Source: Promethearchaeota archaeon
Lineage (GTDB): Archaea; Asgardarchaeota; Lokiarchaeia; Sigyniarchaeales; SOKP01
NCBI GenBank assembly: GCA_016839555.1
Contig: JAEOUA010000006.1
Span: 96,001 to 160,000 of the forward strand
Length of the DNA stretch: 64,000 nt
Direction of reading: 5' to 3'
In this document: positions 59,031-62,179 of the stretch, piece after piece
Layout: the number at the start of each line of letters is the position of its first letter
How positions within the stretch are numbered: position 1 is the stretch's first letter
Program-made: the position numbers and the translations under genes
Notes under the pieces: model-generated
Seen by the model: only the letters and a program-made list of their open reading frames with translations
What the model was told of the DNA's origin: nothing
Database searches by the model: none

Positions 59031-60269
59031 TTACAAGAATTTTTGTATTCTTATTTGGTTCATTTTTATCTCTGATTTAATTTTTCTGAATAAACTCCTA
59101 TATCTAGAATTTTGTAATCTTTTTTCTACAAATCCAATAATATTATTGTTAATCGTTGCCTTTCTTATATTTTTTAGTTCATTCTGATATAACCATAAGT
59201 TATGTATTACTCTCTTCATTCTTGACTCTTTAGTATATTTATCAAAGTCATTTCTTTTTTTAATCCAATCAGTATAATTCCATTTTCCATTTTCTCGATA
59301 TTTAGAACAAACAGGGCATTCGCATTCCATAAATATTTTCTTTTCATTTATGATTTCTTCAGATCCACTAATAGAACGATTCTCAATCAAATATGGTCTA
59401 CTATGAGATTTCTTTTTAAGAAAACGATCTGATATACCAGGTAATTGAATGACGCCTCTACTAGCTTTTAATATCCAACCAGTTGAATCTAAGCTGTCTA
59501 TACCACATAAATAAGCTAAATATGACATTGTACCACCGACCCCAAATGCATGGATAAAAGAATTAGGAAGTTTCTTCCTTAGGTACAAAAGAATTCGTAT
59601 AAAATTTTCTTTTCCTCCTGCATTATCGGAGTTTTTTACTGTTTTAAGCATTGGTACTAAGCTTCCAATTCCAACTGCTTTTATTGGTTCATTTAAAACA
59701 TTTCTAATTCTTTTAATTGCATAATCAATCATTTTAAAGTTGTGTCCATGAATTACGGGTAGTATAGAAAAATTATCATTTTTTTCATAATATCTCAATA
59801 ATTTCTCGAAATTTTCTATTGTTTTATTAATATTTATATATTTTTTATTCTCATTTCCTAATGTTCCTATAGGTACATCTAAAGTTACTCCAATATCACA
59901 AAAAAAAGCTTTTTGGATTTTATAGACCATTTTAGGATTAAATTTATGTATTTTCTCTCCTTTCATTTGTTGTTTCATAAGTTGAAATCCACCGCTATCC
60001 ATCTTATGAAATAAACCTTCTTTAACAAGTTTTTTAATTAATCTAGCTCGGATATTCTTTTGATCTCTATATATTAAGTCATATGCATTACTCATGAAAT
60101 TTTTAATTTTTGCTTGTTTAAATGCTTTAAATTGAAAATCCAAAGATTCTGCGATGCTTAAGCCAAACCATTTAATTGGAGTTTTAATTTGTTTACCATT
60201 TTTTAAAGTAATAACCCCTGTTCTGCTATAATGATCAGTATGAGTTATTTTATAATCAATTTGTTCAAT
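59031..60269 (-). CDS. Guanine transglycosylase (TGT/DpdA-like) without a PUA domain
   Basis: Extended N-terminus SRTGVITLKNGKQIKTP (ATT start at 60269); DSGGFQ, LDVP, PVIHG, GIGSLVP, HAFGVG, DSLDS, CECPVC...HN. Confidence 0.88.
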   Translation of the reverse strand: MEQIDYKITHTDHYSRTGVITLKNGKQIKTPIKWFGLSIAESLDFQFKAFKQAKIKNFMSNAYDLIYRDQKNIRARLIKKLVKEGLFHKMDSGGFQLMKQQMKGEKIHKFNPKMVYKIQKAFFCDIGVTLDVPIGTLGNENKKYININKTIENFEKLLRYYEKNDNFSILPVIHGHNFKMIDYAIKRIRNVLNEPIKAVGIGSLVPMLKTVKNSDNAGGKENFIRILLYLRKKLPNSFIHAFGVGGTMSYLAYLCGIDSLDSTGWILKASRGVIQLPGISDRFLKKKSHSRPYLIENRSISGSEEIINEKKIFMECECPVCSKYRENGKWNYTDWIKKRNDFDKYTKESRMKRVIHNLWLYQNELKNIRKATINNNIIGFVEKRLQNSRYRSLFRKIKSEIKMNQIRIQKFL

Positions 60270-60271
60270 TT

Positions 60272-60823
60272 TTAATCCCTTAATTTTAAAGTTAAGTTTG
60301 CAAATTTATTATTATATTGCTTTAATAAATCCATCGTAATAATATTTTTCTTATGTTCAAATATTAGTTTATATAAGTCTTTTTTTTGGTATTTTATTAA
60401 ATATTTCATTAAAGATTTGTATCCCCCTAATCCTCTTTTATCATAAAAATATACATACTTTTTATTAGTAATTGGTTCGATAATATTTCTATAATTTTTT
60501 CCCATTATTAATAAAATTTTATCATAATTATCAATCAATTTATTTAATTTTGGATTAATTTTTTCCCTCAATTTGATAATATCTTCTTTTTTTTCTATTT
60601 TTTTATTATATGATAGAATTTTTTCCTCAGGAGATAATAATCCATATTTTGCACTTATTATTCTAAAGTCAAAATCATTTAGATTTACAAATTTCTTAAC
60701 TTTTTTGAAAAAATCACCTTGGTAAAGATTAATCGCTTTCTCCTTTATTTTTTTTTTGACTTTCTCAGCTGAACAGCTTGTTATAACAAGAATTTTTTTA
60801 TTTTGAAATTTTTTTTGACTCAT
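60272..60823 (-). CDS. DUF6884 / YaaA-like protein
   Basis: ITSCSAEK, A.NLYQG.FF, IISAKYGLL, Y.KK motifs. Confidence 0.8.
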   Translation of the reverse strand: MSQKKFQNKKILVITSCSAEKVKKKIKEKAINLYQGDFFKKVKKFVNLNDFDFRIISAKYGLLSPEEKILSYNKKIEKKEDIIKLREKINPKLNKLIDNYDKILLIMGKNYRNIIEPITNKKYVYFYDKRGLGGYKSLMKYLIKYQKKDLYKLIFEHKKNIITMDLLKQYNNKFANLTLKLRD

Positions 60824-60844
60824 ATTTCTTAAGATTAAATTTAT

Positions 60845-62179
60845 TTAATTATTCTCCTTCCTAAATATGAGACAATATTGATGACAGCGATTAGCTACCC
60901 AAGCATTATTTATTCCTAGCGGTAGTAGCGCTTTATCGTCTTGACACCATATTTTTTCATCCTTTAAAATCCATTTATCAGATAGTGAAATAGCAGTACT
61001 GTATACTAAAGGAAACACTTTTCCATTATAGAATACGTTATTAGTTATTATTACCAAATATCCTTTATTTTTAAGTATTTTATAAACTTGATTAAAAATT
61101 CTTTTTTGAATATTTATAAATTCATTATAATCATCAATATTTCCAATATCATTGGGATTTTTACTATATTGTGTATCTAATCCAAGAACTTTTCTTTCTT
61201 TTTGACGCATACTATTTCTTTTTAATTGATTCCAATATGGTGGACTAGTAATACAAAAATCTACTTTAGGAAGCTTGTTTTTTTTCCAAATTTTCTCAAT
61301 ATTATTTGAATCCTCATTGAAAATCTTTATTTCTGGATATTCCTCTTCAGTTTCAACCCACCTATCTAATGTTTTTTGTGCTAATCTCATTAAAGAGATC
61401 TCATAATATTTTTTAATTATTTCTATTCCAATACATTTTCTGAAGGTATTTTTTGCTGCTACTGCAGTACTTCCTGTGCCTAAAAAAGGATCGAAGACTA
61501 TCTGATATTTCTTTGTAAAAAATTTAATAAATTCCTCGATTAAAGACTCGGGAAATTTGGCGGGATGTAATATTTCCAAATTATTTCTTGAAGGAGGATT
61601 ATGAATAAACCATGATTTAGTGAATTTAATCCATTCTTTTCCTGTTAAATCATTAAGCTTATTATTTTCATTATATATCCCCAAAGGTAAACCATTTTTA
61701 GCCTTTTCTTTTAGGGAAAATGACACATCTTTTTTTTTAATTCTATCAATTTGTTCCTTAAATGAAATTTTATCAAGATCAACAAAATTGGAACCATATA
61801 ATACTTCATTTTGCGATTTAATCGAATTTTTCAGGAAAAGGATATATAATTTCTTATTAGTTTTGCCTTTATTGCCATATTTTTTTCTAAAATATCTAAT
61901 ATGATCATATTTTATTTGAAAATTTTTTAGATGCTCTTTATTAAGAATCATCATAAAGAATTTAGGTTCAAGAGTTTTTATCTCAACCACTAAGAATTCT
62001 TCTTTAATAACTTCTTCAATTTTATATTCAATTTTATTGTTATTAAGATATTCAAAAAAAGCTTTTAAAAATCTATTTTCAAATAATATTTCTCTGTAAA
62101 TTTTAACATCTGAATTATTTTTTGAAGATTTTATTTCAATGTCAGATTTAATCAACTTTTTTTGATTATTATTATTCAT
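60845..62179 (-). CDS. Amino (N4-C/N6-A) DNA methyltransferase with an N-terminal extension of about 165 aa
   Basis: HPAKFP, DPFLGTG (motif I) before TSPPYW (motif IV). Confidence 0.92.
   Translation of the reverse strand: MNNNNQKKLIKSDIEIKSSKNNSDVKIYREILFENRFLKAFFEYLNNNKIEYKIEEVIKEEFLVVEIKTLEPKFFMMILNKEHLKNFQIKYDHIRYFRKKYGNKGKTNKKLYILFLKNSIKSQNEVLYGSNFVDLDKISFKEQIDRIKKKDVSFSLKEKAKNGLPLGIYNENNKLNDLTGKEWIKFTKSWFIHNPPSRNNLEILHPAKFPESLIEEFIKFFTKKYQIVFDPFLGTGSTAVAAKNTFRKCIGIEIIKKYYEISLMRLAQKTLDRWVETEEEYPEIKIFNEDSNNIEKIWKKNKLPKVDFCITSPPYWNQLKRNSMRQKERKVLGLDTQYSKNPNDIGNIDDYNEFINIQKRIFNQVYKILKNKGYLVIITNNVFYNGKVFPLVYSTAISLSDKWILKDEKIWCQDDKALLPLGINNAWVANRCHQYCLIFRKENN
61605..61633. repeat. Arm 1 of a perfect 29-bp inverted repeat (with 62524-62552) inside the two MTase genes
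   Basis: Reverse complement is TGGATTAAATTCACTAAATCATGGTTTAT. Confidence 0.9.

Follow-up and report, generated by a model that had tools for sequence, protein, structure and literature searches.

What does a tRNA-guanine transglycosylase (TGT) paralogue modify when its gene lies in a defence island, directly behind the genes of a DUF6884 protein and a DNA methyltransferase? This question is raised by a locus in a 64,000-nucleotide stretch of contig JAEOUA010000006.1 (positions 96,001 to 160,000; G000:C5:96001-160000 in our numbering) from the Promethearchaeota archaeon assembly GCA_016839555.1, a genome of 3.7 Mb in 12 contigs. The whole stretch is called the window below and the paralogue TGTx; coordinates are window positions, and TGTx residue numbers are those of the full-length protein of 413 aa. 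Loci, genomes and proteins are labelled L, G and P, f18 and f28 denote Asgard families, and the phylum survey comprised 400 Asgard genomes. The explanation that we consider probable, on the basis of sequence comparison and structure prediction, is that TGTx is a DNA-guanine transglycosylase derived from the archaeosine enzyme ArcTGT, working without DpdB and tethered to the sliding clamp PCNA, and that together with a miniature DpdC-like finishing protein it forms a portable module for marking DNA with 7-deazaguanine. That the enzyme acts on DNA had been proposed in an earlier note on this sequence. The proposal is supported here by evidence other than the note's own, namely separate genes for ArcTGT, ArcS, queCDE and FolE2, a patchy distribution, the tree with its topology test, the defence contexts and a PCNA-interacting protein (PIP) box.

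The genome encodes a canonical ArcTGT (TgtA) of 543 aa (PF01702, 239 bits) separately from TGTx, as well as an ArcS of 690 aa with DUF5591, TGT-like, TGT_C2 and PUA domains. With queC-queD-queE, 61 kb outside the window, and a gene for a FolE2-type cyclohydrolase, the preQ0 pathway is complete. Since the genome has its own ArcTGT, ArcS and preQ0 pathway, TGTx is an extra TGT. The earlier note had suggested looking for a separate arcTGT and queCDE, and both were present, with ArcS and FolE2 in addition; of the outcomes that would have spoken against its proposal, neither of those open to sequence analysis was seen, as TGTx is not the sole TGT and does not cluster with ArcTGT. Comparison of the canonical TgtA between all Asgard lineages gave identities of 55-84%. 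TGTx was absent from six of six genomes of the same genus and occurred sporadically in the phylum survey.

Membership of TGTx in the TGT superfamily is indicated by PF01702 (64.4 bits, cut-off 26.3) and TIGR00449 (69.7 bits, cut-off 47.6). The ArcTGT equivalog model TIGR00432 was the top-scoring NCBIfam model, with 71.8 bits against a cut-off of 350. TGTx contains the motifs DSGGFQ (D92), LDVP (D132), PVIHG (H175), DSLDS (D262) and CxCxxC...H (C317, C319, C322 and H357), and the catalytic and zinc-binding residues were invariant across 43 aligned clade members. The loop from the third zinc-binding Cys to the His has 34 residues, compared with 22 in ArcTGT. The catalytic Asp motifs, the substrate Asp and the zinc site with an insertion, all listed in the earlier note, are therefore present and conserved, and the lack of a C-terminal PUA region was confirmed: no C1, C2 or PUA domain follows the catalytic core of TGTx, which ends at the core plus a helix. 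D92, D132, H175, D262 and the zinc ligands probably correspond to the three Asp residues, His181 and the zinc site of bacterial DpdA, judging from the published description and from a profile match to chain residues 92-280.

The AlphaFold2 model of TGTx had a mean predicted local distance difference test score (pLDDT) of 91.4. Its fold matches were ArcTGT (Z 34.8), bacterial TGT (Z 32.5), QTRT2 (Z 28.6), DpdA 7ui4 (Z 22.6) and Cap10 (Z 21.3). The alignment to ArcTGT 1iq8 covers model residues 3-413 (chain residues 6-388), and the match to 7ui4 (294 residues) begins only at residue 30; strands at residues 6-13, 16-22 and 28-30 of the model form the N-terminal beta-lid. Matches of PADLOC DpdA models in the wider family (69 of 103) were discounted, as the same model matches Escherichia coli Tgt at 30 bits.

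The His in PVIHG had been read in the earlier note as unusual and as a sign that an altered base may be taken. H175 is indeed present, and E. coli Tgt and Pyrococcus ArcTGT have Gln at this position, but GPIHG was found in all eight aligned canonical Asgard ArcTGTs, and phage 9g DpdA1 and STSV2 DpdA have His as well. As the lineage's tRNA enzyme and preQ0-inserting DpdAs share the residue, we rejected His175 both as a DpdA signature and as an indication of an altered base.

The phylogeny was analyzed with FastTree (144 rows) and, more carefully, under a mixture model (48 rows). In the mixture-model tree the canonical ArcTGTs form a clade of their own (99/99), and the TGTx subclade (100/100) lies inside a PUA-less clade of 39 rows (100/96) together with phage 9g DpdA1, STSV2 DpdA and plasmid proteins. 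A grouping of the TGTx subclade with ArcTGT was rejected by the approximately unbiased (AU) test (log-likelihood difference 43.2, p 2e-7). The placement suggested as a check in the earlier note thus sets TGTx apart from ArcTGT and joins it to viral DpdAs, of which those of the STSV1/2 viruses are the nearest named relatives, with about 24% identity between TGTx and STSV DpdA.

These data bear on the possibility that TGTx works on RNA as a second transglycosylase of the archaeosine type and inserts preQ0 into another tRNA position or another RNA, with DUF6884 finishing the base. ArcTGT is the closest solved structure and the best profile match, including the N-terminal lid, TIGR00432 is the highest-scoring family model, and a related pair of TGT and DUF5591 genes occurs in nearly every f18 and f28 genome in a manner that looks vertical. 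This possibility is opposed by the missing C1, C2 and PUA domains and the low TIGR00432 score, by the AU test, by the absence of TGTx from the congeners, and by the defence-island setting and the PIP box. In addition, the genome already has ArcTGT and ArcS, and the f18 and f28 genomes that were checked are similar: three of four f18 genomes have a DUF5591 protein of ArcS size, G091 (86% complete) has only a small one, and f28 has ArcTGT and a 295-aa DUF5591 protein. On balance we regard an RNA substrate as quite unlikely.

Several further TGT genes were observed in the course of the survey. In f18, a PUA-less TGT of 374 aa adjoins a DUF5591-like open reading frame (ORF) of about 194 aa with the motif SCx3KP[YF] in 10 of 12 genomes (L059-L063, L068-L070), besides a canonical ArcTGT; this pair looks vertically inherited and not island-borne, some members have Glu instead of the nucleophile Asp (8 of 20 Asgard rows), and the f28 loci are L057, L058 and L067. 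That such TGT and DUF5591 pairs are a split ArcTGT/ArcS was rejected for the genomes checked, since full-length ArcTGT is kept and three of four f18 genomes keep an ArcS-size DUF5591. Locus L055 (G014:C13:41704-44103) carries two tandem TGTx paralogues from different subclades, next to an MTaseL-like gene and a DEAD cassette. On the Haladaptatus plasmid NZ_CP119784.1 (L019, 47138-51837), two TGT-family genes (673 and 654 aa) are convergent around a small ORF; these branch between ArcTGT and the PUA-less clade, and many haloarchaeal plasmids carry such genes.

TGTx ends in ...NQIRIQKFL, in which QIRIQKFL is a PIP box of the form Qxx[ILM]xx[FY][FYLW]. Among 73 clade members, 9 carry the strict motif in their final 14 residues (shuffled tails: mean 0.2, maximum 2), and it was found in none of 120 canonical ArcTGTs; a loose form was found in 23 of the 73 tails (shuffled: mean 3.4, maximum 9). 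A complex of the genome's PCNA with TGTx residues 360-413 was modelled with a score of 0.74 in all three runs, the best control reaching 0.03. Of the solved complexes 58 of 80 did as well as this, and of the mismatched pairs 2 of 110. Contact agreement between runs was at least 67% and partner pLDDT at least 58. In the model, TGTx residues 402-413 contact the pocket, the inter-domain loop and the C-terminal strand of PCNA, that is, the canonical PIP site. Since many PIP-PCNA complexes have already been solved, the good score may reflect likeness to known structures. The modelling supports, at the level of prediction, docking of the TGTx tail on PCNA, and a clamp tether would be of use to an enzyme that works on DNA and of none to one that works on tRNA.

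The protein encoded directly upstream of TGTx was identified as a DUF6884 protein by PF21818 (58.7 bits, cut-off 30), and PADLOC models of DpdC (1.5e-8) and of the candidate defence family PDC-M57A (1e-14) match it. DUF6884 is the Pfam domain carried by DpdC (PMC11888242), which turns preQ0-DNA into ADG-DNA independently of DpdA and DpdB (PMC10164549). Of the roughly 310 positions of the DpdC model, only positions 33-100 align, to residues 8-73 of the window protein. The SCSAEK stretch contains a CxxxK motif, described as a family motif of DUF6884 (PMC11701544); C17 and K21 as well as I55, S57, A58, K59 and Y60 were invariant and G61 nearly so in 26 homologues, and both motifs of the DpdC-domain family, CxxxK and LSAxxG, are kept. 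A natural fusion of TGT and DUF6884 (P0182) supports a functional link between TGTx and DUF6884. The suggestion in the earlier note that DUF6884 could tailor the inserted base is strengthened by these sequence matches to DpdC, which itself carries the domain. A DUF6884-like ORF (46.8 bits) was also seen at L084 (G397:C78, 6335-6790) near a BREX (bacteriophage exclusion) core and a small methylase, on an 18.6-kb contig with no TGT.

The earlier note had also likened SCSAEK to the Cys motif of ArcS, a resemblance that several observations bear out. The DUF6884 model (pLDDT 86.8) had YaaA 5caj as its best fold match (Z 9.2, root-mean-square deviation 3.9, 156 residues), in agreement with the report of the Pfam curators for the family. 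The second-best match was 2q07/AF0587 (Z 7.6), which a profile search shows to be a DUF5591 protein (E 8e-17). A Foldseek search of the model against the PDB gave nothing at E<=0.001, the best hit being YaaA at 1.1e-3, and a sequence profile of the partner family found no match among PDB sequences. In ArcS, the catalytic C1 core is a DUF5591 domain, whose motif reads PCx3KPYx2Sx2H. The partner of TGT is a DUF6884 protein in L006, L007 and L052, and a stand-alone DUF5591 protein with PCx3KPY in L008, L010, L014, L064/65 and the f18 family. An hhalign comparison of the two partner families (E 2.7e-4, probability 42%) pairs the Cys residues and the Lys residues of the two motifs with each other, and 'IISAKYG' with 'tISEPxG'. 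Judged from these alignments and models, DUF6884 and the ArcS core are probably remotely related. This suggests a common mechanism in which a Cys forms a thioimidate on the nitrile that would be resolved by water or an amine.

We also considered that TGTx modifies protein, like Cap10 of type IV CBASS (cyclic oligonucleotide-based antiphage signalling system), which conjugates 7-deazaguanine to protein. Cap10 (9ntn) is among the five best fold matches, and a preprint describes defence enzymes of the TGT family that can act on proteins (bioRxiv 10.1101/2025.04.06.647259). The Cap10 match is weaker than those of ArcTGT, bacterial TGT and DpdA, no CD-NTase or Cap9/QueC-like neighbour was present among the scanned island ORFs, and the partner families DUF6884 and DUF5591 act on preQ0 bound to nucleic acid. 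A protein substrate is thus very improbable.

From these results, in which gene content, residue conservation, phylogeny, gene context and a modelled clamp docking are shown, we infer DNA as the substrate, preQ0 as the base, the product and a role in defence, in the following course of events. TGTx would be a DpdA-type enzyme that arose from an ArcTGT-like core by loss of the tRNA-binding C1, C2 and PUA domains. Asp92 and Asp262 would carry out the double-displacement chemistry while Asp132 and His175 recognize the base, and guanine in double-stranded DNA would be exchanged for preQ0 supplied by FolE2, QueD, QueE and QueC of the host. The PIP box would tether TGTx to PCNA, so that marking follows the clamp on DNA, and no DpdB-like ATPase would be needed, as with phage DpdAs. 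The co-translated DUF6884 protein would then tailor the 7-cyano group in DNA via Cys17 and Lys21, the most likely product being the amide dADG, formed via a thioimidate. The pair would act as a portable self-marking module that joins BREX in some archaea and a DEAD-helicase set or NurA-HerA in others, and in the window it would have been inserted between a PglX-less BREX core and a trio of two methylases and a nuclease.

A number of observations weigh against this interpretation. In fold and in profile, the similarity of TGTx to ArcTGT (Z 34.8 over 350 residues; 193.6 bits) exceeds that to Salmonella DpdA 7ui4 (Z 22.6; 72.6 bits), TGTx retains the N-terminal beta-lid that bacterial DpdA lacks, and the PADLOC DpdA models gave no match to it at E<=0.01. 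The DUF6884 protein has half the size of DpdC and matches the DpdC models only in its N-terminal 65 or so residues. In the tree, phage 9g and STSV2 DpdA sit on long branches, and the tRNA enzymes used as references were Asgard ArcTGTs and one bacterial Tgt only, with no Salmonella-type DpdA in the tree; a plasmid hit from Paenibacillus is no dpd cluster. Finally, no in-frame ATG, GTG or TTG is available for TGTx residues 1-43, and as the assembled copy is without a canonical in-frame start, the TGTx copy of the window may be poorly expressed or dead.

The last point was analyzed by comparison of the gene starts. The listed ORF of TGTx (TTG at 60143, 370 aa) is truncated, as homologues have about 415 aa, and the conserved N-terminus (about 43 codons, comprising the beta-lid and the invariant T31-P32) continues in frame up to 60272. 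In the L007 orthologue the start lies in the context 'AAAATTG'. The window has this context too, but its TTG (60268-60266) and 'ATTGATTAT' are out of frame by one base; the two loci differ by an indel of 1 nt within an A-rich run. Of in-frame near-cognate codons, ATT at 60267-60269 is nearest. This arrangement would be explained by a 1-nt assembly error in the A-run, by a frameshift of very recent date, or by translation of the gene from the overlapping ATT. A slippery heptamer T_TTA_AAA (60285-60291, minus strand) lies 11 nt upstream of the DUF6884 stop codon, which could plausibly arise by chance at 24% GC. A -1 slip at this heptamer, yielding a DUF6884::TGT fusion, is possible on paper and would be a minor alternative since the orthologues have their own starts.

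This copy could therefore have been inactivated recently, the 1-nt shift after the TTG blocking translation of the N-terminal barrel strand and leaving no active enzyme in this organism. Besides the missing start and the out-of-frame TTG, it fits this view that the public gene call (P0001) begins at an internal Met, about 59 residues short, and that two long neighbouring ORFs (1154 and 1087 aa) have remained intact although their DNA is just as rich in AT, which speaks against widespread assembly indels. On the other hand, all 413 codons, including the 43 orphaned ones, are open and about 60% identical to the orthologues in DNA of 24% GC, so that any damage must be very recent or the frame is still read. 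Translation could begin from the ATT 2 nt past the DUF6884 stop, by re-initiation, or follow a -1 slip, and an indel in an A-run could be an assembly error. We doubt that the copy is dead, while granting the idea an appreciable chance.

The putative marking pair of a TGT and a small partner recurs in defence settings of more than one kind. A BREX core lies next to it in the window and in L007 of G242, and in the L007 host queC, queD and queE are directly beside the island. In L006, L010, L054 and L055, TGTx is accompanied by a DEAD-helicase set with three or four conserved proteins of unknown function, and in L008, L014 and L018 by NurA-HerA and a giant protein. L018 also carries a Vut_1-family gene; Vut_1 is the family of the preQ0 transporter YhhQ. 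Genes suited to precursor supply are thus close to the module in L007 and L018, which favours the marking hypothesis. The DEAD cassette (L006 1-9228, L010 1-8703, L054 13050-19901, L055 13136-19901) combines a DEAD/Helicase_C protein (1600-1830 aa) with conserved unknown proteins measuring about 295, 281 and 986 aa, of which the largest is STAND/P-loop-like; a phospholipase D (PLD) nuclease is sometimes present as well. The cassette could play the part of dpdD-K in archaea.

The nuclease-like protein RE398 was found in 4 of the 400 Asgard genomes. It lies within a few kb of TGTx in all three that could be assessed, even where TGTx is only about 30% identical, and it also occurs in L010. A nuclease-like PD...EVK motif lies near its N-terminus, followed by a C-terminal domain of about 260 aa, and no Pfam family matches the protein; its full span is G000:C5:159372-160568 (L071:372-1568), and the C-terminal domain also stands alone in L007 (11369-12097) and L053 (10704-11447). 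This distribution, as seen in the sequences, points to a functional tie between RE398 and TGTx. A likeness of the orphan protein unk194 to the C-terminal domain of RE398 (7.5 bits, high bias) was too weak to be used.

Does TGTx stand in for PglX as the modifier of the BREX system? PglZ and BrxL of the window core gave clear matches and BrxC a weak one (E 6e-5), and no methylase of PglX size was found in the window island, so that the definition of BREX does not fully apply; classical Asgard BREX loci encode PglX-like NPPY proteins of about 1220 aa. Of the 400 genomes, 19 encode BrxL, and in two of these TGTx is adjacent to it. In L083 (G183:C42:35600-55500), a BREX without PglX has a short BrxL, homologues of unk194 (44%), MTaseL (55%) and MTaseS (72%) and the same divergent layout, and no TGT, DUF6884 or RE398. 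The idea that the TGT replaces PglX is weakened by both observations. MTaseL and MTaseS recur next to TGTx, and in L083 they stand next to BREX without it. This suggests that the role of PglX falls in this BREX subtype to two small methylases of the N6/N4 type, and the methylase pair is likelier than TGTx to be the modifier of the window BREX. As L083 shows the BREX variant and both methylases without a TGT, the window looks like the same layout with DUF6884-TGT inserted between unk194 and MTaseL. The methylase-DUF6884-TGT operon of the earlier note is accordingly correct in that three co-directional genes follow one another at small distances (21 nt between MTaseL and DUF6884, about 3 nt between DUF6884 and TGTx), but it joins two separable modules.

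The same contexts leave room for another role of the same chemistry, in which the pair belongs to a mobile element or provirus and shields the DNA of the element or its host from restriction, as counter-defence or as an epigenetic mark and not as a self-mark of the neighbouring genes. Viral DpdAs guard phage DNA against restriction (PMC6884629), the nearest named viral relatives of TGTx are those noted above, one clade member (L017) adjoins an integrase, the island is AT-rich, and 17 of the 19 Asgard BREX loci are without TGTx, as is the same BREX variant in L083. Conversely, no virion, replication or integrase genes were present among the scanned ORFs of the window island, the pair recurs beside three different nuclease/helicase cassettes, and the rare RE398 is found almost only beside TGTx. 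We consider this role unlikely, if somewhat less so than an RNA substrate.

The positions of the locus features are listed in the table. From about 38 kb of the window onward GC falls to 0.19-0.25, and the genes there are of the defence-island type. MTaseL, DUF6884 and TGTx are convergent toward the plus-strand BREX core, which consists of a 286-aa protein, a 223-aa P-loop ATPase, a BrxC-like protein (1154 aa), a 268-aa protein, PglZ (1087 aa) and a short BrxL (476 aa). No family match was found for unk194 in Pfam, PADLOC and other library scans, and no RNA family in an Rfam scan of the window. Upstream of the BREX genes (37260-47296) lie an RmuC-family gene and an operon of a radical-SAM/SPASM enzyme with a double DUF2284 protein, and a STAND/NACHT-like NTPase with a helix-hairpin-helix (HhH) tail is encoded on the minus strand at 40335-42095.

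Table. Features of the TGTx locus, in window positions.
Feature	Position	Strand	Basis
TGT paralogue TGTx	59031..60272	-	413 codons of conserved frame plus stop; PF01702; homologues of ~415 aa span the whole frame
TGTx tail with PIP box, residues 402-413, ...NQIRIQKFL	59034..59069	-	Enrichment in the clade and PCNA model
TTG matching the L007 start codon, one base out of frame	60266..60268	-	Junction comparison of the window with L007 and L006
DUF6884 protein, 183 aa, miniature DpdC-like partner	60272..60823	-	PF21818; PADLOC DpdC
CxxxK motif of DUF6884, C17...K21, proposed catalytic Cys/Lys	60761..60775	-	Invariant in 26 homologues
MTaseL, N6/N4 DNA methyltransferase, 444 aa	60845..62179	-	PF01555 (97.8 bits); PADLOC MTase_II
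MTaseS, paralogous N6/N4 methyltransferase, 332 aa, divergent from MTaseL	62251..63249	+	Pfam and PADLOC
RE398, first part of a 398-aa protein extending 568 bases beyond the window end	63372..64000	+	ORF
unk194, orphan gene (194 aa) ending the BREX core	58424..59008	+	44% identical homologue in L083
BREX core without PglX	47892..58409	+	Pfam and PADLOC

A wider reading may tentatively be drawn from these loci, about which we are more doubtful than about the module itself. Archaea would possess a PCNA-riding unit without DpdB in which the TGT inserts preQ0 into newly clamped DNA and the base is finished by one of two homologous Cys-Lys proteins, either by DUF6884 to the amide or by DUF5591 to an amidine or lysine adduct; the mark would serve as a self-mark for unrelated cassettes (BREX, DEAD-helicase/PLD, NurA-HerA), and RE398 would be a specific partner reading it. 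DNA containing 7-deazaguanine has been described for bacterial Dpd islands and for viruses. The literature that we searched contained only bacterial Dpd, viral DpdA1-4/ArcS2 and the BRC proposal discussed below, and nothing on an archaeal TGTx-DUF6884 pair or on a cellular archaeal system. If the reading is true, Asgard archaea, the closest prokaryotic kin of eukaryotes, mark their chromosomes with a hypermodified base via a clamp-tethered enzyme, which would be a prokaryotic parallel to the clamp-coupled maintenance of epigenetic marks, and one marking unit would be shared among very different defence effectors. The ArcS core and DpdC would then be two branches of one nitrile-tailoring family, with a testable Cys/Lys mechanism for DpdC. 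As many restriction enzymes fail on DNA marked in this way and nanopore base-calling suffers, such marks would be relevant to cloning and sequencing of DNA from these organisms.

Among known systems, the Dpd system of Salmonella Montevideo (DpdA/DpdB/DpdC; 7ui4; PMC10164549) shares with the window the TGT fold, the three Asp residues, the His and the zinc site, a partner with a DUF6884 domain, an island of restriction-modification type and the dependence on preQ0 synthesis by the host. The window differs in that no ParB/DndB-like gene, as would encode the DpdB ATPase, was found among the scanned island ORFs, DpdB not having been searched genome-wide. TGTx moreover keeps the lid, is closer to ArcTGT (Z 34.8 vs 22.6) and has a PIP-box tail, the partner has 183 aa against about 310 model positions, the host is an archaeon, and the neighbours are BREX or other cassettes instead of dpdD-K. 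TGTx and DUF6884 would work like DpdA and DpdC, although the retained lid, the missing PADLOC match and the absence of DpdB set them apart from the Salmonella type.

Viral pairs of DpdA and an ArcS core are known from STSV2 (DpdA and ArcS2) and from Vibrio phage nt-1, in which DpdA2 and ArcS yield dG+ in DNA (PMC10516641, PMC6884629). With these pairs and phage 9g DpdA1, TGTx shares the PUA-less clade (100/96), the lack of DpdB and the two-gene design of a transglycosylase and a small tailoring protein, and sister Asgard loci even carry DUF5591 with PCx3KPY. In contrast to the viral pairs, that of the window lies in a cellular defence island, DUF6884 replaces DUF5591, and the zinc site of TGTx is intact with an insertion of about 12 residues, at about 24% identity to STSV DpdA. 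With ArcTGT/TgtA (1iq8), its best structure and profile match, TGTx has the catalytic core, the lid, the zinc site and the preQ0-fitting L/V pair in common; it differs by the lack of C1, C2 and PUA, the TIGR00432 score far below cut-off, the separate clade and the patchy occurrence, and by GSLVP and DSxDSxGW where ArcTGT has GGLVK and DLMDSAAY. Finally, BRC systems with TGT/GNAT have been proposed to use TGT-based 7-deazaguanine self-marking on BREX-like components; they have no DpdC homologue, and HerA/FtsK is universal in them (NAR 2026, PMC12839542). TGT marking alongside BREX-like parts is common to both, and the HerA-bearing sister loci L008, L014 and L018 resemble the theme, whereas the window has a DpdC-like gene and BrxL and neither HerA nor GNAT.

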